A stretch of DNA of 64,000 nucleotides from an uncultured Pseudomonadota bacterium (GTDB lineage Bacteria; Myxococcota_A; Polyangia; Fen-1088), in the NCBI GenBank assembly GCA_963729535.1, contig CAVSOL010000017.1:370837-434836 (forward strand), given 5' to 3'. The translations under genes were made by a program, and so were the position numbers. This document shows, piece after piece, positions 8,801-35,689 of this stretch; within the stretch, counting starts at the first letter, position 1, and the number at the start of each line of letters is the position of its first letter. The notes under the pieces are model-generated. The model saw only the letters and a program-made list of their open reading frames with translations. It ran no database searches and was not told the DNA's origin.

Positions 8801-8832
8801 GCGCTCGAGACCAGCAACGGACGTGCCAGCTG

Positions 8833-24520: not shown

Positions 24521-24660
24521 CCAATTAAAGCGAAGAAAGTTGGCGTGAAAGTGAGCCGATCTTCAATGAGCCGGATCCGAATTCGTTGTTCTCGTGACGG
24601 CAACATTACGGCTTCGATCCAAATTGACGACGCCGGGAATGCTGACCTACGGTGCTCGTG

Positions 24661-26562
24661 ATGAAACGCTACTTATTCGCGACTTGCTTACTGATTGGCT
24701 GCGTCACGCCTGCCACCGGCCCGGACACGGGCGCCGGCGGAGCCGGCGGTGATGGGGTAGGGGCGGGCGGAACGGGCAACGCGGTCGGCGGGTCGTCGGG
24801 CGTCAGCGGCATCGCGGGCACCGGGGGATCGGGAGCAGGCGGTCCGGCCGGCACGACCGGCGCGGGGCTCGCTCCAGGCGGCATGGGCGGTGGCCCGACA
24901 GGTACGGCCGGCGGGAGGGCAGGCACGACGGGCGGCCCCGCAGGTACGACGGGCCGCGCGGGGACGACCGGCACGGGGGGCGGCGCGGCTCCCATGGCGT
25001 CGTTGATCGGCGACGTGACGTTCTCGACGCCGAGTCAGAGTTTTCGCACTTCGATCCAGGTCGGCATGACGACCGCGCTGACGGGCGCCGAGATCCGCTA
25101 CACGACGAACGGAACGTTGCCCACGGCGACGTCGACGTTGTACGCGGGCGCGCCGGTCACGCTGACAGCGACGACGCAGCTGCGTGCGACGCCGTTCATC
25201 GGCGGCGCGCCGGGCGGCAGGGCCAGCACCGCGATCTTCATCGCGCGCGACTTCGATGCGACATCGACCCTGCCGCTGGTGATCCTCGACGGCTACGGCA
25301 AAGGGCCGTCGACCAACAAGGACCTGGACATGGACGCCGCCGTGATGATCTGGGAGCCGGCCGGCGGATCGGCGAGCCTGACGTCGCTGCCGACGGTGGC
25401 GGCCAAGTCCATCTACCACCTGCGTGGCCAGTCGTCGGCCACCTTTCCGCAGAAGCCGTACAAGATCGAGTTCCGCGACAACGGTGACAGCGACATGAAG
25501 ATCCCCGTGCTGGGGATGCCCGCCGACGCCGACTGGGCGTTGATCGCGCCGTATTACGATCGCGCGTTGATCCGCAACCCGTTCATCTACGGCCTCGGGC
25601 GGGAAATGGGGATGCCCGCGCCGCGTACGCAGTACGTCGAGGTCTACATCAACTCGGCGAACCGCCCCGTCGCGCAGACCGACTACCAGGGCATCTACTG
25701 GCTCTCGGAGACGATCGAGAACAACCCCGCGCGGCTCAATCTCAAGCAGATCGAGACGACAGACACGACGACGCCGGCGATCAGCGGTGGCTACATCTTC
25801 AAGTTCGATCAGGCCGCCTCCGAGGAGCCGAAGCTGACGTGCACCGGATCGAATCCGATCTCCGGCGGCCTCGGAACGGGCACGGGCGGTAGAGGCGGCG
25901 GGACGTGCTGGGTGGATCTGGAGGTCGTCGATCCGGAGCCGCTCGGCGCCGAGCAAAAGGCCTGGCTCACGCAATACATCCAGGAGTTCCACAACTCCCT
26001 GCACACGACGCCGATCGGCAACTACGCGAACTGGATCGACGTCCCGTCGTTCGTCGACAACCTGATCGTCAACGAGCTGAGCCGAAACGTCGACGCGTAC
26101 GTACGCAGCTCGTACTACCACAAGGAACGCGACGGCAAGCTCAAGGGAGGCCCGCTGTGGGACTACAACTTCTCGCTGGCGGTGGGCGGCAGCGGAACCA
26201 TCAATCCCGCGCCGACGTCGAACGGGTTCCAGTTTCAGGGCACGCGTAACGTCAACAACTGGTACCCGAAGCTGGCCGCCGATCCGACGTTCATGAACGC
26301 GGTCAAGGCGCGCTACCAGGCGCTGCGGGGCAACTTGCTGTCCGACGCGTCGATCCAGCAGCGCATCGACACGCTCATCGTGCCGCTGACGTCGACGGTC
26401 GTCGCGCGCGACTACGCCAAATGGCCGGTCAGCACCGTGCTGCCCAACGGCGGTAGCGGCATCGTCAGGGGCCCGTCGGTCGCCACCTGGGACGGGCAGG
26501 TCAAGGCGATGCGCGACTTCCTCACCGCGCGCCTGGCCTGGATGGACACCCAGCTGCGATAG
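24661..26562 (+). CDS. cotH: CotH-family kinase lipoprotein with FN3-associated (IRYTTNG..PT) domain
   Basis: Lipobox LIGC; RGQSS..FPQKPYKIE, DWAL, DRALIRN, YQGIY, NVDAY, GPLWDYN and ARLAWMD. Confidence 0.9.
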   Translation: MKRYLFATCLLIGCVTPATGPDTGAGGAGGDGVGAGGTGNAVGGSSGVSGIAGTGGSGAGGPAGTTGAGLAPGGMGGGPTGTAGGRAGTTGGPAGTTGRAGTTGTGGGAAPMASLIGDVTFSTPSQSFRTSIQVGMTTALTGAEIRYTTNGTLPTATSTLYAGAPVTLTATTQLRATPFIGGAPGGRASTAIFIARDFDATSTLPLVILDGYGKGPSTNKDLDMDAAVMIWEPAGGSASLTSLPTVAAKSIYHLRGQSSATFPQKPYKIEFRDNGDSDMKIPVLGMPADADWALIAPYYDRALIRNPFIYGLGREMGMPAPRTQYVEVYINSANRPVAQTDYQGIYWLSETIENNPARLNLKQIETTDTTTPAISGGYIFKFDQAASEEPKLTCTGSNPISGGLGTGTGGRGGGTCWVDLEVVDPEPLGAEQKAWLTQYIQEFHNSLHTTPIGNYANWIDVPSFVDNLIVNELSRNVDAYVRSSYYHKERDGKLKGGPLWDYNFSLAVGGSGTINPAPTSNGFQFQGTRNVNNWYPKLAADPTFMNAVKARYQALRGNLLSDASIQQRIDTLIVPLTSTVVARDYAKWPVSTVLPNGGSGIVRGPSVATWDGQVKAMRDFLTARLAWMDTQLR

Positions 26563-26661: not shown

Positions 26662-26699
26662 GTGCGGCGATCCGCACAAGCTTGTGCGGATCGCCGCAC
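26662..26699. promoter_or_regulatory. Perfect 38-bp palindrome made of two GTGCGG-N4-CCGCAC sites (putative sigma54 enhancer)
   Basis: GTGCGGCGATCCGCACAAG|CTTGTGCGGATCGCCGCAC, about 60 bp upstream of a -24/-12 element. Confidence 0.75.
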
Positions 26700-26760
26700 A
26701 AACGCGGGGATGGCGCGACGCCAAGCCCAGGCGGGGTGCCGCGCAACGCCGCCGCCGTCA

Positions 26761-26777
26761 CCGGTACGTGGCTTGCT
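26761..26777 (+). promoter_or_regulatory. sigma54 (-24/-12) promoter
   Basis: CCGGTACGTGGCTTGCT matches GG-N10-GC with TTGC. Confidence 0.7.
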
Positions 26778-26828
26778 GTGTACTTGCGCCGCGGTCTATC
26801 AATTGGATTCGCAGAAAGGGATTCGGCC

Positions 26829-28049
26829 ATGGTGTTCGTGAACAGGAAGAAGTGGGTAGCTGCGGCGGCGCTGACCGCCGCGACCGCGATGGGGACGCAA
26901 GCGAGCGCGGAGACGATTTGCGCGACGGCGCGCAAGACGACCTGGAACGTGCCGAACGGGGCGTTGGTCATCAGCCGTGCGTCCGGAGGCGTGGTCAAGG
27001 TCATCCTGGACTCCGTCAACGAGTGGGGCACGCACACGGCGATGTCACACGGCACTGACTTCTGGGTCTCGCATTCGACGGCCAAGATGCCGTCGGTGCA
27101 GGACTCCTGCTCCATCCCGATCAATCGAAACGAGCTCAATAACTCGGGCCCGGGCGCTTCCGCGATCCCGCTGCCCGCGATGTACGTCAACTACTTCGGC
27201 AGCAGCGACATCGGGTCGAAGGTTCTCAAGACCCGTACGACCAGCGGCACGGTGTCGTCCGTCGGTGGCCAAGCCGGCCAGGCCGGAATGGAATGGTACT
27301 CGGGAAACAACCGCGCGGATGACTGGGGGTTTTACGAGGGCCGGGCGGATCCGTGGGTGTTCTACCCGGGGAACTCCAACCGCGGCTTTCAGGCGATCGA
27401 GTACCTGTGGGACTGGCCGCTCTACGGGTTGTTCGACACTGGCAGCTACGTTCTGTCCGGAGGGGTCCTCAAGTTCGTTGCGGCTGAGCCTTTCTATAGG
27501 TACCAGTCCGACGACGGCAAATACATCCGCTACGGGTACAACCGCTACCTCGACATGAAGAACACCCACAAGGGTGATCTCAACGGCAACATCGGCGTCG
27601 TCTGCTCGGGGCTGCCCGCCTTCGCGAGCTGGCGCTCGGGCGCGGGCGGCGTCTTGCCGCATAGCACCTACACACATGACGAGAAGAAGCGCGCCATCAA
27701 CGCGCTGTGGAACAAGGTCCACGACGAGTGCGAGGCCGGCGTCGGCGGGGTGTTCGACGCCTCGTTCTGGGAGATGAACGTCGGTTGCATCAACTACGAC
27801 GTGTGCGGGCGCGCGGCGGACATCGTCACCAACACGTTTGCGGTGGACCGGGCCGAGGTCGGCGGCGCGTGGAAGAACGTGCGCGACAACACCTCGATCA
27901 AGCCGTTCTCGATCAGCCCGGACTGCCTGGCTGGCCGCAACGGCAAGTGCTTCGCGGACGGCGGCGGCTCGAGCCCGTGGGGGTGGGACGTCGGCCGTTC
28001 CGTGACGTGGAGCGGGTCGACCGTCTTCTCCTGCTGGTCGAACTACTGA
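26829..28049 (+). CDS. Secreted Cys/Trp-rich protein, candidate permuted papain-like (YiiX/YebB-type NlpC/P60) enzyme
   Basis: Sec signal ending ASA. GALVISR..THTAMSHG (His) lies N-terminal and VVCSGL (Cys) lies C-terminal. Confidence 0.6.
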   Translation: MVFVNRKKWVAAAALTAATAMGTQASAETICATARKTTWNVPNGALVISRASGGVVKVILDSVNEWGTHTAMSHGTDFWVSHSTAKMPSVQDSCSIPINRNELNNSGPGASAIPLPAMYVNYFGSSDIGSKVLKTRTTSGTVSSVGGQAGQAGMEWYSGNNRADDWGFYEGRADPWVFYPGNSNRGFQAIEYLWDWPLYGLFDTGSYVLSGGVLKFVAAEPFYRYQSDDGKYIRYGYNRYLDMKNTHKGDLNGNIGVVCSGLPAFASWRSGAGGVLPHSTYTHDEKKRAINALWNKVHDECEAGVGGVFDASFWEMNVGCINYDVCGRAADIVTNTFAVDRAEVGGAWKNVRDNTSIKPFSISPDCLAGRNGKCFADGGGSSPWGWDVGRSVTWSGSTVFSCWSNY

Positions 28050-28085
28050 GCCTGGACGTCTGACCGACCTCTCCACGGTGATGCC

Positions 28086-29504
28086 ATGAACAAGAAACGC
28101 TTCGGAATCGTCGTCGCGATCGCCCTGGTCGGCGTGTTGCTGTTCTTCCTCGTCCGTTCGCCTGGGTCGGCGGTTCAGCCGGCTGCGACGGCGGCAGAGG
28201 ATCGTGGCAGTGCACCCGCACCTGTCGGCCCACGCCTGGCGCCGCCGGTGTCGGGCGCCCAACCGGTCGCGGCGTCCGTCATCGAAGCCGTCACCGTGGA
28301 GAAGACCGAGGTATGCAGCGGCGAGGACAACCTGGTCACGGTCACGCTCGCCAGCGGCCATCCCGGCGGCGACACCGCCCGCATCATGATGCCCGCGCTG
28401 GGCTCGGCCGGTCCGCAGATGCCGTTCCGTCTGAGCCTGTCGCGGGACAAGCAGCAGCCCGAGATGCCCGAGGTCGTCGTGTTCGGCAGCGACGGCCCGC
28501 TGGCGACGGTGAGGATCCCCGCGGTGAAGGTGAAGGACTGCAACCCCGGCCCCGTGCTGACCATCGACGCGGCGCTCACCGCCAACACATCGGCCACGTT
28601 CGCGTTCACGGCCACCGTGCTCAACCAGGGGCCGACGCCGTTCAAGCCCGTCGAGTGGCGCTGGGACTTCGGCGACGGCAGCGACGCCGTCACCAAGGTA
28701 CGCACCGTCGAGCACGGCTACGAGGACCGGCCGCAGAAGGCGCGCATGTCGAACTTCCTCGTCCACGTCCGCGCGGTCGACGCGCAGGGGGTGGAGCTGG
28801 TCGGTCGCCACGGCATGGAGCTGCGCAACGAGGCGTTCGAAGCCCTGCGCGTCAAGAACGCCGTCCTGCTCGCCACCGAGCTCACCCCGCGCTTTCCGGT
28901 CATGGGCGCCGACGGGCGGGTCGTGCAGCGCGTCCGCATCCACCACGCGTACGACAAGCCGGTGAACATCGACCGTGTCTTCATGCAGCGGTTCCGCAAG
29001 AACGAGCAGGGGCGCGACGACATGCAGGAGAGCGCGGTTGACCCGCGGCAGATCTTCGGCACCAACGTGGTCCCGCCCGGGCGCGGGATCGAAGTCACCG
29101 CGACGCTGGACACCCGGGCGGAGCAAGGCACCGGGCTGCTGACGTTCGACCTCGTCGGGACGTCGGTGGACGGGATACGCGCGACCGGGCAGTTCTCCGT
29201 GCTGCGGCCCCCCGAGCTCATCCCGCAAGCGGAGCGCGAGGTCGTGACCGACGTGCGCCTGCGCGCCGAGATCCTGGCCGTGCGCAAGATGCTCGGCCGC
29301 GACGAGGTGACCATCGACGACATCATGCAGCTGCGGCGCGAAGGCGCGCTCGACAACCTGACCGGCGACGACGGGCAGCCGTTGAAGGTCGCCGCCGCCA
29401 GCGACACCGACGACATGCGACCGCGCGCCGAGCAGCCGAAGTCGCGCAAGGGGACGCCGCTGCGACGTCCGTCCGCGTCGGCCAACAGAACATCTCAAGA
29501 GTAG
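28086..29504 (+). CDS. Membrane-anchored PKD/Ig-like domain protein (paralog A)
   Basis: N-terminal TM anchor; WRWDFGDGS..VEHGY PKD motif. Confidence 0.75.
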   Translation: MNKKRFGIVVAIALVGVLLFFLVRSPGSAVQPAATAAEDRGSAPAPVGPRLAPPVSGAQPVAASVIEAVTVEKTEVCSGEDNLVTVTLASGHPGGDTARIMMPALGSAGPQMPFRLSLSRDKQQPEMPEVVVFGSDGPLATVRIPAVKVKDCNPGPVLTIDAALTANTSATFAFTATVLNQGPTPFKPVEWRWDFGDGSDAVTKVRTVEHGYEDRPQKARMSNFLVHVRAVDAQGVELVGRHGMELRNEAFEALRVKNAVLLATELTPRFPVMGADGRVVQRVRIHHAYDKPVNIDRVFMQRFRKNEQGRDDMQESAVDPRQIFGTNVVPPGRGIEVTATLDTRAEQGTGLLTFDLVGTSVDGIRATGQFSVLRPPELIPQAEREVVTDVRLRAEILAVRKMLGRDEVTIDDIMQLRREGALDNLTGDDGQPLKVAAASDTDDMRPRAEQPKSRKGTPLRRPSASANRTSQE

Positions 29505-29543
29505 CCGCACACCCGCGCTGCGCGCGGGAGCGGCTAGTGACGC

Positions 29544-30152
29544 TCAGGGCCGCGCCAGCGTCGACGGCTGGGTCAGCGTCTGAGCCTCGCCGATCGCAAA
29601 CGCCGATAGGCCGGCCCAGGCGCCCTTCTCCCATTGCTGCCAGCCGGCGCCGAGGATGAGGAAGTAGGCGACGCCCACGCCGACGTTGAGCAGGTGCCAC
29701 GGCCAGCGGAGTCGGTCTCGTTCGTCGCGGCCGTAGGCGAGACGCAGGTCCTGGACGCCGGCGGGATCCGTGGCGCCGAGGAGCTGGGTGGGCGCGGCCT
29801 CGACGTCCAGCGGCCAGGCGATGGTCAGCGCCGTGCTTATTCCGGAGCCGATGCCGCTCAAGATCAAGGACGGGTGTTGTTGCCGATCCGACAGCGGCAG
29901 CAACGCGACCGAGCCGACGGCCAGCGCGGCGTTGATCGCGATCCACGAATAGCGCCAGCGCCGGGCCCGCGCCGCCTCGTCCAGCACGACGCGGACCGCG
30001 GCGGCGTCCAGGCGTTGCATCGTAGCGTCCGGCTGCGGCTGCGCTTGCGCCGCGGCCGACCGTGGCAACACCACCGCGCCGCCGAACACCAGCAACACGA
30101 CGAGCGCGGTCGACCGCCCGCGCCCGGCAGGCTTCGGTCGCGCGCGCATCAC
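29544..30152 (-). CDS. Hypothetical membrane/exported protein, third gene of the two-component operon
   Basis: Overlaps the regulator stop codon; signal-like N-terminus and 4 hydrophobic segments. Confidence 0.65.
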   Translation of the reverse strand: MMRARPKPAGRGRSTALVVLLVFGGAVVLPRSAAAQAQPQPDATMQRLDAAAVRVVLDEAARARRWRYSWIAINAALAVGSVALLPLSDRQQHPSLILSGIGSGISTALTIAWPLDVEAAPTQLLGATDPAGVQDLRLAYGRDERDRLRWPWHLLNVGVGVAYFLILGAGWQQWEKGAWAGLSAFAIGEAQTLTQPSTLARP

Positions 30153-31516
30153 AGCAGTCGATGCTCTTCGAGCTTCGTGTAGAGCGTTCGGCGGCTGACA
30201 CCGAGCAGGCGCGCGGCGAGCGTCCGGTTGTTTCCGGCGCGCGTCAGCGCCGCCGTCAGGGACTCGCGTTCTGTGCGTTTGCGCTGCTCGTCCAGCGAAA
30301 GCGTCCCACCTGCGGGCGTTGTCCGGCTCCGCTCGTCGGCCGACTGCGACTGCGGCTGCTGGCGCACGAGCTCGCGGCGAACGTCCTCGACGGTGATGTG
30401 GGGGCCGTCGGACAGCACCACCAGCCGTTCGATGAAGTTCTCGAGCTGCCGTACGTTGCCGGGCCAGGGCTGATCGGCCAGCAGCCGCACGACGTCCTCC
30501 GCGACCGCCACGCTGGGGCGGCTGTTCGCCCGCGCGTGGATCGCGCAGAAGTGCCTGACCAGGAGCTCGACGTCGCCGGTTCGGTCGCGCAGCGGTGGCA
30601 GCCAGATCGGGACGACGTTCAGCCGATAGAACAGGTCCTCACGGAACTGCTCCTTGGCGACCATGCCCTCCAGGTCACGGTGGGTGGCCGCGACGAACCG
30701 GACGTCGACGCGCAGGGTGTCCCGCCCCCCGAGCCGTTCGAGCTCGCGGTCCTGGATCACGCGCAGCAGCTTGACCTGCATCGTCAGCGGGATGTCGCCC
30801 ACCTCGTCGAGGAACAACGTCCCGCCGTGAGCAAGCTCGATCCGCCCCGGCTTGCGCGAGTTGGCGCCGGTGAACGCCCCCTTTTCGTAGCCGAACAGCT
30901 CGCTCTCGAGCAGCGTCTCCGGCAGGGCCGCGCAGTGAATCTTCACGAACGGACCGCTCGCCCACGGACCGGTGTCGTGTAGCGCGCGCGCGACCAGCTC
31001 CTTGCCGGTTCCGCTCTCGCCGCGGATCAGGACCGTGGCCTTGCCGCGGGCGGCGCGCCGCACCAGCTCGTCGACCTCCCGCAGCGCCTGGGATTGTCCG
31101 ACCATGGTCTTCGACCGCGGGCGCTCCGGCGCCGCCGAGCGGTGCTGGGTCGCGGCCAGCGCCTTGTTGATCACGAACAGGATCTCGTCGCGGTCGAACG
31201 GCTTGAGCAGGAAGTCCGACGCTCCGCGTTTCATCGCGTCCACCGCGAGCGAGATGGTCCCGTGCGCGGTGAGCAGGACGACCGGCAGATCCGGACGCTG
31301 CTGGACGACGCGATCCAGCAGCGCCATGCCGTCCAGCCCGGGCATGCGGACGTCGGTGACGACCACGTCGTAAGCCCGCGCTTCGAGCTCCGTGAGCCCC
31401 GCCTCTCCGCTCTCTACGTACGTCGCCTCGAACCCTGCCTGGTCGAGCAACGCGCCCAGGATCGTGCCCACCGCCGGATCGTCATCGACGACCAGAATCC
31501 GCCCCGTCGTGCCCAT
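30149..31516 (-). CDS. sigma54-dependent response regulator (NtrC family)
   Basis: REC domain (ILVVDDD, DVRMP), GESGTGKE, GAFTGA, DLFYRLNV, WPGNVR and Fis-type HTH. Confidence 0.96.
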   Translation of the reverse strand: MGTTGRILVVDDDPAVGTILGALLDQAGFEATYVESGEAGLTELEARAYDVVVTDVRMPGLDGMALLDRVVQQRPDLPVVLLTAHGTISLAVDAMKRGASDFLLKPFDRDEILFVINKALAATQHRSAAPERPRSKTMVGQSQALREVDELVRRAARGKATVLIRGESGTGKELVARALHDTGPWASGPFVKIHCAALPETLLESELFGYEKGAFTGANSRKPGRIELAHGGTLFLDEVGDIPLTMQVKLLRVIQDRELERLGGRDTLRVDVRFVAATHRDLEGMVAKEQFREDLFYRLNVVPIWLPPLRDRTGDVELLVRHFCAIHARANSRPSVAVAEDVVRLLADQPWPGNVRQLENFIERLVVLSDGPHITVEDVRRELVRQQPQSQSADERSRTTPAGGTLSLDEQRKRTERESLTAALTRAGNNRTLAARLLGVSRRTLYTKLEEHRLL

Positions 31517-33029
31517 TGCTCACTTCTCCGTTGATTGGGAAATACAAGGTGACGCTTGTGCCGATCCCCACCTTGCTGCTCAGTTGCAGCCGGCCGCCAT
31601 GCGCCTCGACCACTCGCTTGGTGAACGCAAGCCCGAGGCCCGTGCCGTGGGGCTTGGTGGTGAAGAAATCATCCAGGGCGCGCGCCGAGTGGCGGGCGTC
31701 CATGCCGGCGCCGCGGTCCAGAACGGCCAGCGACGCGCCGACCACCCGACCGCGCGAGCGGCGGATGGCGGTCCGCACGCTGACGACTCCACCCTGCGGC
31801 ATCGCCTCGGTGGAGTTTCGAACCAGGTTCTCCAGCGCCCGCGCGACCAGCTCGGAATCGAGCTGGAAGATCGGCAACTCCGTATCGAGCTGCGGATCGA
31901 GGGCGATGTCCTTGCGCACGAACGCCTGCAGCGTGATCACCTTGCGAACGAGCTGGTTCAGATCCGTCTCGGCCAACCGCGGCTGAAGGTGCCCGAGCTG
32001 CGCGTATTCGTCCACGACGTGGTTGATGCGATCGACTTGACCGGACAGCAGCATCAGCACCTGCCGCTGGCGGTCGATCGCGCCGCCACGGTTGAGCTCC
32101 TCGGTCAGGTATTGAACGCCGCCTTTCAGCGCCGCGAGCGGATTCTTCAGGTCGTGGGCCATCTGCGCGCTGAACCGGCCTTGGCGGGCCAGCGCCTCGA
32201 CGCGATAGCGCCGCTCGAAATAGGTGCGCGTCAGCTGCCGCAGCGCCATGACCAGCAACAGCGTCAGGATCGTGGTCCCGAGCATCACCGCCGCCGTGCT
32301 GTGCGACAGCAGCCGGAACATCGCCGCGTAGCCGGCGACGCCGGTCGCGGCGAGGCCGACCGACCACAGCGCCACGCGCGGCGGCAGGTTCTTGTCGAAG
32401 ATGCGGAAGCGCAGGCTGGCCATCGTCAGCAGCGACGCGCTCAGCAACGACCCGACGTTGGCGAGCGGCGGAACACGGAAGCCGAAGTCGTCCCAGAAGT
32501 CGGTCGTCGACAGCAGCGCTCCCACCAGCAAGGCGGCGATCATCGTCCGGGTGCGGATTCGCTCGAACGGATCGATGACGCGCCTGTCGTGCAGGACGAG
32601 CCAGACCGTGCCCGCCGATACCGCGCCGACGTCCGCGACCAGGAAGGCAAACGACCACGTGTCCGACGCGATCCAGGCGCGGGCGGAGGAGGAGACGAGC
32701 GCCAGCCACGAGATCCCCGCGAGCCCCGCCGCGCACAGGTAGGCGGCGGCCAGGGTGACGCGACGGGTGGTCGTCTGGCCGACGAAGCGAGCCGCCACGT
32801 GCAAGGCCAGCGCGGGAGAGAAGGGCGACGTGCCGAGGTCGATCAGGTGCCATTCGGGGCGCCCGGACAGCGAGAACGCGAAATCGGCGAAGTTCCAGGC
32901 GAACAGATCGAACGCGAGCAGCCGCATCGGCCAGACGAGCGGATTTCGCTCCGGCCAGATGAGGAGAAGGATGGCCACCGCCAAATGCCCCGCCCATGCA
33001 ACGAGATCCAGCGCCACGTGGCCGGTCAC
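31482..33029 (-). CDS. Sensor histidine kinase with multi-TM (7TM-like) N-terminus
   Basis: MAHDLKNPL, ENLVRNS, DRGAGM, FFTTK and GTGLGL. Confidence 0.93.
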   Translation of the reverse strand: MTGHVALDLVAWAGHLAVAILLLIWPERNPLVWPMRLLAFDLFAWNFADFAFSLSGRPEWHLIDLGTSPFSPALALHVAARFVGQTTTRRVTLAAAYLCAAGLAGISWLALVSSSARAWIASDTWSFAFLVADVGAVSAGTVWLVLHDRRVIDPFERIRTRTMIAALLVGALLSTTDFWDDFGFRVPPLANVGSLLSASLLTMASLRFRIFDKNLPPRVALWSVGLAATGVAGYAAMFRLLSHSTAAVMLGTTILTLLLVMALRQLTRTYFERRYRVEALARQGRFSAQMAHDLKNPLAALKGGVQYLTEELNRGGAIDRQRQVLMLLSGQVDRINHVVDEYAQLGHLQPRLAETDLNQLVRKVITLQAFVRKDIALDPQLDTELPIFQLDSELVARALENLVRNSTEAMPQGGVVSVRTAIRRSRGRVVGASLAVLDRGAGMDARHSARALDDFFTTKPHGTGLGLAFTKRVVEAHGGRLQLSSKVGIGTSVTLYFPINGEVSNGHDGADSGRR

Positions 33030-33246
33030 CCTCTCCGCATATGCCTAGACGCGTCGGAGATCAAGCCTCCGCCGCAACCAAGACGTTTATTGGGTGCTGA
33101 ACACCGGCTGTTTCCAGCCTGGTGCCGTGACGGCTCCGTCACGAGTGGTGGTCTCGTCGGCAAACAGGACCGCACGAACGCAAATGTCGTGCCCGCGGTT
33201 GTGCGCGGCAACACGGTGGATTTGTCCGCGGGGTTGTAAAGCCCGT

Positions 33247-33272
33247 CCTCACAAGTGTGCGGAGGTCCGCAC
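33247..33272. promoter_or_regulatory. Second copy of the TGTGCGG-N4-CCGCAC enhancer-like site
   Basis: CCTCACAAG-TGTGCGGAGGTCCGCAC resembles 26672-26699. Confidence 0.65.
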
Positions 33273-33324
33273 GCTTCCGCTTCACGGAAGCTGAGGGACC
33301 GCGATCCGACGCGCCTTGATCGGC

Positions 33325-33340
33325 TGGCACGCGCGATGAA
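33325..33340 (+). promoter_or_regulatory. sigma54-like promoter
   Basis: TGGCACGCGCGATGAA: perfect -24 (TGGCACG), variant -12 (GA in place of GC). Confidence 0.55.
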
Positions 33341-33353
33341 GAGCGTCGCCGCC

Positions 33354-34565
33354 ATGACCCGAAGCCACCGAAAGACCTGGTTCACGGCGTTCGCGTTCCT
33401 GCTGCTGGCGGGCGTGGCCTGTGTGTTCCTTCTCGCGTTCCGCTCGCCGAAGGTGGCGACGACAGCGGCCGCAGCCGACCTAGACGATCATCCACCGCTG
33501 GCGAATGGCGAGCCGGCCCGCCAGCGGTGGCGGGCGAACGGCGTCGTCACGGCCGCCGAGGCGACTCCGGATGTCGGCGTCGAGATCGACGCCATCGACG
33601 TCGACAAACAACAGGCTTGCAAGGGCGAGGAGATCACCGTCAGCGTGCGGGCGCGCGCCACGGAGCGCGACGGTGGGCGCTTCCTCAGCTACGGCGTGAT
33701 GGGCCATCCCGACAGCGTCGGGCCGCGCTTCACGCTGCGGCTGGAGGAGAGCCTGGCGGTCGACTGGATGCGCGTGTTCGTCCGCGGCCGGCGCGGCGCC
33801 GCGGTCAAGGCGGTGCCGCCCGTCGTGGTCAAGGACTGCGAAACCCCGGACGTGGTGACCATCGACGTGCAGCGCAAGCCCGAGATGATGGACCGGGCCT
33901 GGCTGACGGCGCGCCTGGCCCAACGCGGCGCGACCGCCGAGGCCAGCCCGCTGCGTCCTGTCGAGTACCGCTGGACGTTCGACGACGGCACCACGCAGAC
34001 CACGCAGACGCCCGACGTCGAGCACAACTTCGAGAACCGGCGGCAGAACGTCGCGCACGCGTACTACTTCGTGTCCGTCGAAGCGCGCGACACGAACGGC
34101 CGTACCGCCCGCGGGTCGCGATCACTCCGTTTCGTCAACCTCGGTTTCCGGCCGCTGATCCACGACAAGCAGGTGGTCGTGTTCTCGGCGATCGATCCGC
34201 GCGCCGCGGGCGGCGAGAAGGTGTGGCTCTATCACGGGCACGACGAGGCGGTGCGCATCGACAGGATCATCGTCAACGACATCATCCGCGGCGCGAACGG
34301 TGGCGACGTCACCGTCGCGACCAACGGCCACGACGCGATGACGCTGCTCGGGTTCGCGGAGATCCCGCCGGGCAAGAGCATCGCAACGAGAGACCTCGCG
34401 GCACTGCGACCCGCCGAGGCCGGCAAGCAGCGGGTCGTCGAGATCACAGGTCACACCGCGAGCGGACATACCGCGCGCGGCGCTTTCAATCTGCTCGCGC
34501 CCGACGTGGTGTTGGCCGCGACCGCAGAAGAAACCCAACCCACGTCCGAGGAGAGTCAGCCATGA
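33354..34565 (+). CDS. Membrane-anchored PKD/Ig-like domain protein (paralog B of 28086..29504)
   Basis: TM anchor; YRWTFDDGT..VEHNF; colinear similarity with paralog A. Confidence 0.75.
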   Translation: MTRSHRKTWFTAFAFLLLAGVACVFLLAFRSPKVATTAAAADLDDHPPLANGEPARQRWRANGVVTAAEATPDVGVEIDAIDVDKQQACKGEEITVSVRARATERDGGRFLSYGVMGHPDSVGPRFTLRLEESLAVDWMRVFVRGRRGAAVKAVPPVVVKDCETPDVVTIDVQRKPEMMDRAWLTARLAQRGATAEASPLRPVEYRWTFDDGTTQTTQTPDVEHNFENRRQNVAHAYYFVSVEARDTNGRTARGSRSLRFVNLGFRPLIHDKQVVVFSAIDPRAAGGEKVWLYHGHDEAVRIDRIIVNDIIRGANGGDVTVATNGHDAMTLLGFAEIPPGKSIATRDLAALRPAEAGKQRVVEITGHTASGHTARGAFNLLAPDVVLAATAEETQPTSEESQP

Positions 34566-35689
34566 TTGCCAGAAGGTTACGAAACGGTCTTGTTGGTGGA
34601 GCGTTGATGGTCACCGTCCTGTGCGCGAGCGCGCGTCCCGCGCACGCAACCGGGGCGGAGGTCATCGCGGTAGCCGGGACGATCTACACCTTCTTCAAGC
34701 AGGTGTACGGCTACTACCAGACCCTGCGCGGCCTGCTCGGAGACGCGGGCCCGAGCATCGGCCAGCAGCTCCAGGCGATGCAGGACGCCCTGATCGCCGA
34801 GATGCGAAGCCAGCGCAACATGGCCCTGCAGTCGAGCACGCGGAGCGTGTTCAACAAGTTCACGAACCTATCCGACAACCGTATTGGCGACGCCACGAAC
34901 GCAGACTTGTGGACGCAAATCTACGGGCAGCAAACGGATACAGCCGATTTGATGTACGACATCATCGCCAGCAGCGATTTCGAGTCGGCGTATCAACTCG
35001 CGCCTGCGTACAACGCGCTGATCACGACCGGCACCGGCGTGCTCAAGATCAAGGGCGAACTGTGGCCGTCGGACAAGAGCAGCTGGAACGACTTCTACAT
35101 CTGGCTGCAGCCGGCCATGCTCGCCGACTATCGGATGATCGGGTCGCAGAGGCACCAGTGCTATCCGGGCTACAACCCCGGCTACAGCCCGCCGCCGACG
35201 TCACCAGCGGCCGCGGTGCTCGCGTGGCAGCTCAGGACCAAGCCCGGCAAATACCGCGACAGCCAGCTGTGGACCAAGAAGCTCGAGAACCGATCGATCC
35301 ACGTCGAGACGTGGAGCATCACTTGCCGCACCGGCCGTGCCGGCGGCGTGATCACCAGCAACTGGCAGCAGACCTGCAACCCGGCCAGCCGGACGTGCAC
35401 CTCGATCGGCACAGGCTGCTGGCTGAATAGCCAGACGTGGAACGCCTGCGGCACCGGCGTCGCACCACTGGATTGCGCCGACCAGAAGGCCAAAGCTCAC
35501 TTCGACGCCGACACGACGGTCAAGATCATCCGCGAGGCGATGAAGGGGATCCAGACGCTGTCGGGCGGCAACGACTACGACTTCGCGACGAACGACGGCC
35601 TGCTGGCGCAGGGCAAGTACGTCGACCCCTGGGTCAACGAGGCGTCGTGCGGCTCCAGCGGTCCGTGGGCGTACCCGCAGCAACCGTGA
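34562..35689 (+). CDS. Secreted hypothetical protein (helical N-half, Cys-rich C-half)
   Basis: ATGA overlap with the upstream gene, GAGGAG RBS and signal peptide ending AHA. Confidence 0.75.
   Translation: MIARRLRNGLVGGALMVTVLCASARPAHATGAEVIAVAGTIYTFFKQVYGYYQTLRGLLGDAGPSIGQQLQAMQDALIAEMRSQRNMALQSSTRSVFNKFTNLSDNRIGDATNADLWTQIYGQQTDTADLMYDIIASSDFESAYQLAPAYNALITTGTGVLKIKGELWPSDKSSWNDFYIWLQPAMLADYRMIGSQRHQCYPGYNPGYSPPPTSPAAAVLAWQLRTKPGKYRDSQLWTKKLENRSIHVETWSITCRTGRAGGVITSNWQQTCNPASRTCTSIGTGCWLNSQTWNACGTGVAPLDCADQKAKAHFDADTTVKIIREAMKGIQTLSGGNDYDFATNDGLLAQGKYVDPWVNEASCGSSGPWAYPQQP

Follow-up and report, generated by a model that had tools for sequence, protein, structure and literature searches.

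Paralogous PKD-domain anchor proteins paired with predicted secreted proteins around a two-component system in an uncultured Polyangia bacterium

A PKD-anchor gene paired with a gene for a secreted protein

We analyzed a stretch of 64,000 nucleotides (nt; "the window") from contig CAVSOL010000017.1 (positions 370,837 to 434,836) of an uncultured bacterium that GTDB places in the Polyangia (Myxococcota_A; assembly GCA_963729535.1; 7.85 Mb in 29 contigs, 79% complete; G000 in our labels). Two operons in this window each combine a gene for a protein with a PKD domain and an N-terminal membrane anchor (PKD1 and PKD2) with a gene for a protein carrying a Sec signal (cargo1 and cargo2), and a histidine kinase and an NtrC-type response regulator are encoded between them (Table 1). 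The genes of the region, which has a local G+C content of ~69%, were read by open reading frame (ORF) and third-position GC. An initial annotation, made from the sequence, had proposed that the two operons form an inducible module in which a constant anchor protein is combined with variable secreted cargo.

Table 1. Genes and DNA elements of the two operons and the region between them (positions in the window; aa, amino acids; palindrome, GTGCGG-N4-CCGCAC)
Feature	Position	Strand	Remarks
Palindrome, two tandem copies	26662-26699		exact matches; 145-167 nt before cargo1 start
Sigma-54-type element CGGTACGTGGCTTGC	26762-26776	+	GG and GC intact, 8/10 consensus bases, 67 nt before cargo1 ATG
cargo1	26829-28049	+	406 aa, Sec-signal protein
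PKD1	28086-29504	+	472 aa, PKD-anchor protein
GC-rich hairpin (TAGCCGC...GCGGCTA)	29497-29538		between convergent PKD1 and 202-aa genes
Small membrane protein	29544-30152	-	202 aa
NtrC-type sigma-54 enhancer-binding response regulator	30149-31516	-	455 aa
Histidine kinase, N-terminal sensor region with multiple transmembrane segments	31482-33029	-	515 aa
Sigma-54-type element GGGCACGACATTTGC	33180-33194	-	toward kinase gene; one mismatch, sole such site in region
Palindrome, single copy	33257-33272		divergent kinase/PKD2 intergenic region
Sigma-54-type element TGGCACGCGCGATGA	33325-33339	+	perfect -24 hexamer, -12 is GA, not GC
PKD2	33354-34565	+	403 aa; alternative start codon 33336
cargo2	34562-35689	+	375 aa, Sec-signal protein

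PKD1 and PKD2 share 111 identities over 392 positions (28%; BLASTP E 2e-26), and all seven sequence blocks from which the initial annotation had deduced their paralogy fall within this alignment. PKD1 scores above the Pfam cut-off of 27 bits for PKD_4 (29.4 bits); PKD2, which is homologous to PKD1 along its length, lies just below it (25.0 bits). Beyond the PKD domain neither protein has a match in Pfam; NCBIfam gave no match, and a profile search of the PDB returned PKD domains only, the solved relatives being the PKD domains of collagenases. The protein atlas likewise placed PKD1 with PKD clusters only, at a best score of 0.80. Both proteins have one strong N-terminal hydrophobic segment by hydropathy, with basic residues before it (residues 5-23 in PKD1 and 10-28 in PKD2). 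In PKD1 this membrane helix is followed by a Pro/Ala linker, a Cys-containing beta domain, the PKD domain, a further beta domain and a C-terminal helical segment, the last of which is missing from PKD2. Two cysteines, C77 and C152, are invariant in the family, and this pair is consistent with a periplasmic location.

Next to each PKD gene lies a gene for an unrelated Cys- and Trp-rich secreted protein, a layout that the initial annotation had described correctly. Both cargo proteins start with a signal-peptide-like sequence; cargo1 has 9 Cys and 17 Trp residues, cargo2 has 9 Cys and 12 Trp. Distant kinship of cargo1 and cargo2 was considered and ruled out, the hhalign probability being 0.8%. 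The order of the genes differs between the operons: in operon 1 cargo1 comes first and is separated from PKD1 by 36 nt, and in operon 2 PKD2 comes first, with its stop codon and the cargo2 start overlapping by 4 nt as ATGA and the sequence GGAGAG positioned 8 nt upstream of the cargo2 start.

Homologs of the PKD-anchor proteins are uncommon. A word-indexed protein search found 43 relatives, mostly hypothetical proteins; three are named (one in JGI, two in NCBI), as "PKD domain" only, and the two labeled by organism come from Hyalangium and from a metagenome-assembled genome of the Polyangiaceae. Of the genomes sampled, 401 from the phylum and 89 from the order, 5 and 7, respectively, contain a member; the PKD-anchor gene is a rare accessory gene. 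We compared 22 distinct PKD loci, namely the two operons of the window, a third paralog on contig C4 of the same genome, and loci L005-L012 and L030-L040. At 14 loci a cargo1-family gene lies directly upstream of the PKD gene on the same strand. Two loci at contig edges (L034 and L036) retain the C-terminal piece of such a gene, and the 501-aa protein encoded upstream at L032 is a divergent member of the family (E 2e-12), so that a cargo1-family neighbor is found at 17 of the 22 loci overall. Three loci have a cargo2-type gene instead (operon 2 of the window, L039, and L040), which precedes the PKD gene in L039 and L040 and follows it in the window. L005 is not assessable and the C4 paralog is an orphan. 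A co-directional gene for a secreted protein thus stands beside the PKD gene at 20 of 22 loci, as had been predicted from the window.

The assignment of L040 (G404:C144, 1415-3268), where a gene for a 348-aa secreted helical protein is followed after 13 nt by a short PKD-anchor gene (264 aa), rests on hhalign, which matches the upstream ORF to the cargo2 profile in its helical half (probability 89%), and we read the locus as a third, more distant example of the cargo2-type pairing. A metagenome scan for cargo2 gave three short loci, which do not show both flanks.

In the phylum set of 401 genomes, the 5 that have the cargo1 family are exactly those that have the PKD family. Within the order, cargo1 occurs in 6 and PKD in 7 of the 89 genomes, and the seventh PKD-positive genome has cargo2. 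Immediately adjacent PKD and cargo1 genes occur in four or more families of Myxococcota. The two full-length cargo2-linked PKD proteins group as one clade in a maximum-likelihood tree (support 100/99), and both lack the C-terminal helical segment of the cargo1-linked proteins. There is, then, one dominant cognate cargo family and one switch to cargo2 in a PKD sub-clade. The idea of a constant anchor with variable cargo holds only weakly and is not supported as it was proposed: cargo1 is itself conserved (17 of 22 loci), and a single sub-clade has changed its cargo. The PKD/cargo pair is a conserved, undescribed two-gene module, not one anchor with many cargoes; a limited literature search found no published description of cargo1, cargo2, or the PKD-anchor architecture.

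These distributions bear on the simplest alternative, that the genes are mere neighbors and that the PKD proteins, as ordinary proteins of the periplasm or envelope, are functionally independent of the cargo and of the kinase and regulator. The kinase and NtrC-type genes adjoin the cassette in only two places, the window and L035, and sigma-54 sites with two mismatches occur at chance frequency, which would suit this explanation. The genome-for-genome co-occurrence, the adjacency across at least four families, and the overlap of start and stop codons in operon 2 all argue against it, and we regard it as very improbable.

Several observations concern the cassette elsewhere. The third paralog in the genome of the window (C4:10649-12055) is 65% identical to PKD1 and has a fatty-acid-desaturase-like gene upstream and no cargo gene nearby. 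Its reading frame shows an apparent frameshift near codon 320, a break that may be unreal, as assembly indels are likely. Cultured carriers of the cassette are Myxococcus eversor, M. qinghaiensis, Corallococcus terminator, and Vitiosangium. The flanks of other cassettes contain genes for secreted hydrolases (L010 and L037): in Myxococcus a subtilase with an I9 propeptide, together with a GMC oxidoreductase, and in G423 a matrixin-tectonin protein.

Predicted folds of the cargo proteins and of a PKD1-cargo1 complex

Cargo1 has no match in Pfam, NCBIfam, or PDB sequence-profile searches. A model built from a 24-sequence alignment (mean predicted local distance difference test score (pLDDT) 78.6, predicted template modeling score (pTM) 0.80) was compared with solved structures by VIA-align. 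The best matches were E. coli YiiX (2if6_B; Z 10.4, root-mean-square deviation (rmsd) 3.5, 175 of 180 residues aligned) and a protein of B. cereus (3kw0_A; Z 10.1, rmsd 3.7, 164 of 189 residues aligned). Among weak Foldseek rows the same two proteins appeared (3kw0_D, E 1.5; 2if6_A, template modeling score 0.56 by target length). The next VIA-align rows, all papain-like, were TseH (Z 5.6), PLAAT4 (4.7), the MARTX RID domain (4.5), and CLN5 (3.4). Of these, we take PLAAT4, RID, and CLN5 to belong to the permuted or acyl-directed group. TseH and the LRAT/HRASLS group are classed in this way in PMC12994826.

The conserved residues of the cargo1 family point in the same direction. H69, Y235, and C259 are invariant in all 24 sequences, and position 82 varies (18 H, 4 Q, 2 E); the model places C259 immediately ahead of helix 261-269 and H69 where a strand begins. 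According to PMC3142127, the catalytic residues of BcPPNE are His49, Glu64, Tyr127, and Cys154, and in the description given there by Xu et al. permuted NlpC/P60 proteins have the order His, polar residue, Tyr, Cys; a hydrophobic pocket and a fatty-acid ligand are reported there for YiiX. By sequence position cargo1 matches this order, in which the polar residue follows the His by ~13-15 positions and the Cys begins a helix. On the basis of the model, cargo1 is a new clade of the permuted NlpC/P60 (YiiX-like) fold. Since the permuted clade is presented as lipid-directed (PMC3142127, PMC12994826), cargo1 by analogy most likely hydrolyzes or transfers fatty-acyl groups on lipids. A profile search gave 318 representative metagenome proteins of the cargo1 clade at E <= 0.001 and 134 at E <= 1e-30, and 3 of 10 long distant relatives that we scanned carry PPC or TIG domains, which are typical of secreted enzymes. 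Peptidase_C92 (PF05708), the Pfam family tested against cargo1 (below), has only weak sub-threshold pieces in the genome of the window, on contig C9, unsuitable as the basis of a profile.

The cargo2 family has 13 members including the window protein, and consists of an N-terminal helical domain and a Cys-rich C-terminal alpha/beta domain of ~180 aa. Cargo2 has no match in Pfam, NCBIfam, or PDB sequence-profile searches, and none of the 13 members matches any Pfam Cry family, Endotoxin_N included, at E <= 10. The model has a pLDDT of 69.8, with residues 1-66 poor and values of 46-78 in the helical half. Its top VIA-align matches were Cry7Ca1 (Z 12.8, 197 residues aligned), Cry8Ba2 (12.5), Cry8Ea1 (12.3), and PirB (11.6 and 11.3), with superpositions spanning 189-200 residues, followed by Cry11Aa (10.7) and the fern protein IPD113 (10.5, 255 aligned); the top Foldseek rows were Cry1Da and IPD113, with E values of 0.09-0.15. 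The protein atlas returned unnamed actinobacterial clusters (0.92) and, as weak leads, an Endotoxin_N cluster (0.84) and cephalotoxin. We consider a helical bundle like domain I of Cry toxins a supported lead for cargo2, not a family membership. Both modeled cargo folds are seen in toxins or effectors, in agreement with the suggestion that the cargoes are of the effector or toxin type.

The match to PirB, which is half of a binary toxin, brings up another arrangement, in which the PKD protein is released or surface-exposed and supplies beta-sandwich binding domains for a cargo that is the active domain. The pair would then be a display system, as the initial annotation had raised, or a two-component toxin, comparable to PirA/PirB or to a three-domain Cry toxin divided between two genes. 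PKD domains are often binding modules in secreted enzymes, as in the collagenases that contain the solved relatives, and the large predicted PKD1-cargo1 interface (below) would also suit a two-part toxin. The PKD proteins, on the other hand, have the look of inner-membrane proteins, with a 19-residue segment of high hydropathy placed after basic residues and before a Pro/Ala linker, and Pfam and NCBIfam gave no outer-membrane or sorting signal for them. Cargo1, moreover, is modeled as an enzyme rather than a pore former, although its partner is of the same kind. We therefore judge a display function improbable.

We predicted the complex of PKD1 (residues 62-440) with cargo1 (residues 28-406) using custom alignments, in line with the initial suggestion that cognate pairs should interact. 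Three runs scored 0.00, 0.88, and 0.90 (median 0.88) and three controls all scored 0.00; the score mark used is reached by 58 of 80 solved complexes and 2 of 110 mismatched pairs, with run agreement of at least 4% of contacts and a partner pLDDT of at least 37, and for custom alignments this calibration is only rough. The predicted interface has ~300 contacts and involves every domain of PKD1 including the C-terminal helix. The contacts of highest confidence run from the conserved G-x-F-S-V-L-R-P strand of PKD1 to two parts of cargo1, its conserved W39-N40 motif and its C-terminal strand. The PKD1 helix that contacts cargo1 in the model is the one that is absent from the cargo2-linked PKD clade. 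The prediction supports binding of PKD1 to cargo1, and the difference between the scores and the controls is a further point against mere neighborhood.

A predicted complex, tight gene coupling, and toxin-like folds in both cargoes also fit effector-immunity pairs, in which the cargoes are antibacterial toxins, one a lipid-directed enzyme and one a pore former, that pass the periplasm and the PKD proteins are the cognate immunity proteins there. This is the main rival explanation, and we hold it to be possible but doubtful. The cargoes have ordinary Sec signals, and no link to a contact-dependent injection system was seen at the examined loci. A toxin released into the medium would meet the outer membrane of the producer, which is beyond the guard of an inner-membrane protein. 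The PKD proteins are also large (400-470 aa, several domains) and wrap the cargo in the model, where no catalytic-type contacts are listed and unnamed residues are uncertain. Apart from the C4 copy, the 22 loci include no PKD gene without a partner. To our knowledge, paralogous immunity proteins for two unrelated toxin folds would be unusual, and this too counts against immunity.

Regulatory DNA and neighboring features

The two-component system between the operons is as the initial annotation had read it. The kinase has HisKA and HATPase_c domains in Pfam and at least four hydrophobic segments in a hydropathy scan. The regulator contains Response_reg, Sigma54_activat (2.1e-70), and HTH_8 domains, and its translation includes the GAFTGA motif; it falls under every NCBIfam equivalog cut-off.

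The motif that had been noticed upstream of both operons is an exact palindrome, GTGCGG-N4-CCGCAC. It occurs exactly three times in the window, each time upstream of one of the two operons, and at 7 sites in the whole genome, in which the reversed control pattern has 11. Given this rarity, with 3 of the 7 sites in two upstream regions, we do not attribute the placement of the palindrome to chance, and it speaks against the genes being mere neighbors. The palindromes lie 54-110 nt upstream of -24 elements, the single copy in the divergent region being 54 nt from the plus-strand and ~64 nt from the minus-strand element. The palindrome is a candidate upstream activating sequence for the NtrC-type activator. 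None of the other four copies (contigs C9, C12, C25, and C26) has a sigma-54-like site nearby, and two are located within genes. They do not point to a larger regulon, with the exception of the C25 copy, which duplicates the operon-2 promoter.

This duplicate (C25:12994-13140) is a 148-bp copy of window positions 33226-33372, the upstream region of operon 2, with 80% identity. It retains the palindrome, the TGGCAC...ATGA element, and the first PKD2 codons, and downstream of it are a 17-codon stub and genes for a response-regulator-like protein, a lipoprotein, and a trypsin-like protease. It may be a promoter recruited to other genes.

Sigma-54 promoters had been proposed for both operons. For operon 1 the proposal is plausible from the sequence, the GG and GC of the element being intact. 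The promoter of operon 2 is imperfect, and its element is just 15 nt before the PKD2 start codon. Locus L035, from another genus of the same family, has orthologs of the kinase (with a conserved N-terminus) and of the NtrC-type regulator beside its cassette. Its cargo1-family gene is preceded at -76 by TGGCACGAGAGATGC (9/10 consensus), in a position orthologous to the operon-1 element, and at -145 by a related palindrome, GTGCAG-N4-CTGCAC. This geometry is that of operon 1 and gives independent support to the operon-1 sigma-54 site and the palindrome. The genome of the window has rpoN (family model, C2:779929-781388), matched in three frames, which suggests indel errors in the assembly; other apparent frameshifts need care.

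The kinase and NtrC-type pair is likely autoregulated, since GGGCACGACATTTGC faces the kinase gene and a similar site precedes a paralogous kinase. The latter belongs to a second kinase/NtrC pair on contig C8 (C8:209247-212183; ~68% DNA identity to the window pair), where sigma-54-like TGGCATGGCGCTTGC precedes the kinase gene by ~50 nt and the pair is followed by a small lipoprotein-like gene. On the minus strand at 8814-8828 the window has its sole exact match to the sigma-54 consensus, TGGCAC-N5-TTGC.

The 202-aa gene overlaps the stop codon of the NtrC-type gene by 4 nt, and its product is probably co-transcribed with the two-component system; it has no match in Pfam or NCBIfam. The hairpin between this gene and PKD1 (fold -39.4 kcal/mol, z -1.8) is a member of a dispersed repeat with ~20 copies of 88-95% identity on many contigs of the genome, and is probably a bidirectional terminator or an element of the repetitive extragenic palindromic (REP) type. 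Directly upstream of operon 1, at 24652-26562, is a gene whose secreted, CotH-kinase-like product has a C-terminal domain of the chitobiase/hexosaminidase type.

Favored mechanism and comparison with known systems

The reading that we favor, at a probability of about one half, is an inducible module in which a secreted lipid-directed enzyme or pore-former-like protein is served by a dedicated chaperone or holder tethered to the inner membrane. We prefer a tethered chaperone because the anatomy of the PKD proteins matches that of membrane-bound chaperones of the type II secretion system (T2SS) and because GspD and GspF are present, above their cut-offs, in the genome of the window. The two paralogous cassettes would form one secretion module, each contributing a Sec-exported, disulfide-rich, toxin-like protein and its cognate partner. 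The partner would be fixed in the inner membrane by its single N-terminal helix, with the PKD-containing body in the periplasm, where it would hold the cargo through a very large wrap-around interface; this role may well include keeping the enzyme harmless in the periplasm of the producer. Cargo1 would be a permuted NlpC/P60 (YiiX-like) Cys-His enzyme acting on lipid acyl groups, and the helical domain of cargo2 would resemble the pore-forming domain I of Cry and PirB toxins. The kinase and NtrC-type regulator presumably act through the shared palindrome to switch on operon 1 from its sigma-54 promoter, and probably switch on operon 2 and their own operon as well. What the analysis shows directly is how the genes are arranged, that PKD1 and PKD2 are paralogs, which residues of catalytic type are conserved, that the families strictly co-occur and adjoin, and that the operons share the palindrome, together with the modeled folds and complex. 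From these we infer the enzyme activity, the chaperone role, export by the T2SS, regulation by this NtrC-type protein, and a part in predation or antagonism.

Several results weigh against this reading. For cargo1, Foldseek against the PDB gave nothing at E <= 0.001, Peptidase_C92 (PF05708) matches none of the 24 family members at E <= 10, and the hhalign probability of the family profile against E. coli YiiX is 0.2%; because Pfam and hhalign are both negative, we call cargo1 a new clade of the fold and not a member of Peptidase_C92. For cargo2, Foldseek against the PDB likewise gave nothing at E <= 0.001, and the Z of 12.8 is below ~13, a level that helical models can reach through a common arrangement without kinship. 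One of the three PKD1-cargo1 runs scored 0.00, and the custom alignments make the calibration of the complex score a rough one. Neither H69, H82, Y235, and C259 nor the residues beside them appear among the listed contacts, which, with unnamed residues uncertain, decides neither way. On the regulatory side, the -12 element of the operon-2 promoter lacks GC and the better sigma-54-like site there faces the kinase gene, and two-mismatch sigma-54 matches are at chance level (45 in the window vs 65.6 expected from shuffles), so that by themselves they are weak evidence. The PKD partner has no sequence relation to the T2SS chaperones Lif or CpaB in Pfam, NCBIfam, or PDB profile searches. The orphan C4 paralog fits an immunity gene better than a chaperone, and orphan immunity genes are often seen. 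There is also a precedent for immunity in Tox-Act1, described in PMC12994826 as a permuted NlpC/P60 phospholipase that is neutralized by a membrane protein.

A bolder version of the tethered-chaperone reading, which we offer tentatively and think unlikely in its full extent, makes the PKD proteins "toxin holsters", a new beta-sandwich class tethered to the inner membrane that would both mature and neutralize its client in the periplasm. The class would have been re-targeted from a lipid-directed permuted NlpC/P60 enzyme to an unrelated Cry/PirB-like pore former by loss of the C-terminal clamp helix, and the two pairs would work on one sigma-54 switch in predation or antagonism.

The concept of a secreted enzyme with a dedicated membrane-tethered partner under a two-component switch is already known. 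New are the families themselves, a partner of beta-sandwich architecture, and the switch of this partner between two unrelated clients. Few of the secreted proteins by which myxobacteria kill or digest, and few of the factors that handle them, are known, and the analysis defines three families that have no Pfam or NCBIfam model: YiiX-like Cys-His enzymes, the PKD partner, and a Cry-domain-I-like family. It provides testable pairs, conserved residues of catalytic type, a predicted interface, and a candidate regulator site, and the cultured carriers make experiments feasible. Should the partner turn out to be a chaperone, it would add a new architecture to the few dedicated T2SS chaperones; should it be an immunity protein, the pairs would be a new type of Sec-dependent toxin-immunity system.

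The closest parallel for immunity is Tox-Act1 of Salmonella. This phospholipase with a permuted NlpC/P60 core acts as a toxin in the periplasm and is neutralized by the product of a downstream gene, a membrane protein with two transmembrane helices (PMC12994826, 2026). Cargo1 is predicted to share the permuted core, with His before Cys, and by analogy the periplasmic action on membrane lipids and the downstream membrane-protein gene would make Tox-Act1 and Imm-Act1 resemble cargo1 and PKD1. Tox-Act1 is type VI-delivered, whereas cargo1 has a Sec signal, and Imm-Act1 is small with two transmembrane helices, whereas PKD1 is a multi-domain protein of ~470 aa. In structure cargo1 is nearest to YiiX and BcPPNE (Z ~10) and not to TseH (Z 5.6). 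As in YiiX and BcPPNE, the order His, polar residue, Tyr, Cys is conserved, and the cargo1 model covers nearly the whole reference chain. Unlike them, cargo1 is twice as long (406 aa), has large insertions, is predicted to be secreted, contains 9 cysteines, and is paired with an obligate membrane partner.

The helical bundle of cargo2 can be superposed on domain I of Cry toxins and the N-terminal domain of PirB over ~190-200 residues (Z 11.3-12.8, values within reach of a common helical arrangement). Unlike Cry toxins, cargo2 has no domains II and III and has the Cys-rich domain of ~180 aa instead; pore formation by cargo2 would be an analogy to these toxins.

The membrane-bound T2SS chaperones are the nearest match to the favored reading. 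As described by Harding et al. (2016, PMC4713064), these proteins have an N-terminal transmembrane helix, are encoded beside their effector, and are needed for its secretion, and for lipA and lipB both gene orders occur; known pairs are Lif/LipB/LipH with LipA and CpaB with CpaA (PMC4713064, PMC7046727, PMC13381987). The PKD proteins are like Lif and CpaB in having one N-terminal transmembrane helix and, as predicted from hydropathy, a periplasmic location for most of the chain, in the adjacency within one operon to a Sec-exported protein (36-nt gap or 4-nt overlap here, 22-132 bp in PMC4713064), in the occurrence of either gene order in the PKD/cargo2 pairs, in a tight one-to-one complex as predicted for PKD1-cargo1, and in a host genome that encodes T2SS components (GspD and GspF in the genome of the window). 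They differ in build and in clients: the PKD partner, beta-rich and containing a PKD domain, contrasts with the helical Lif and the SRPBCC-like CpaB, and in place of the lipase and metalloprotease served by Lif and CpaB the clients here would be a permuted NlpC/P60 enzyme and a Cry-domain-I-like protein.

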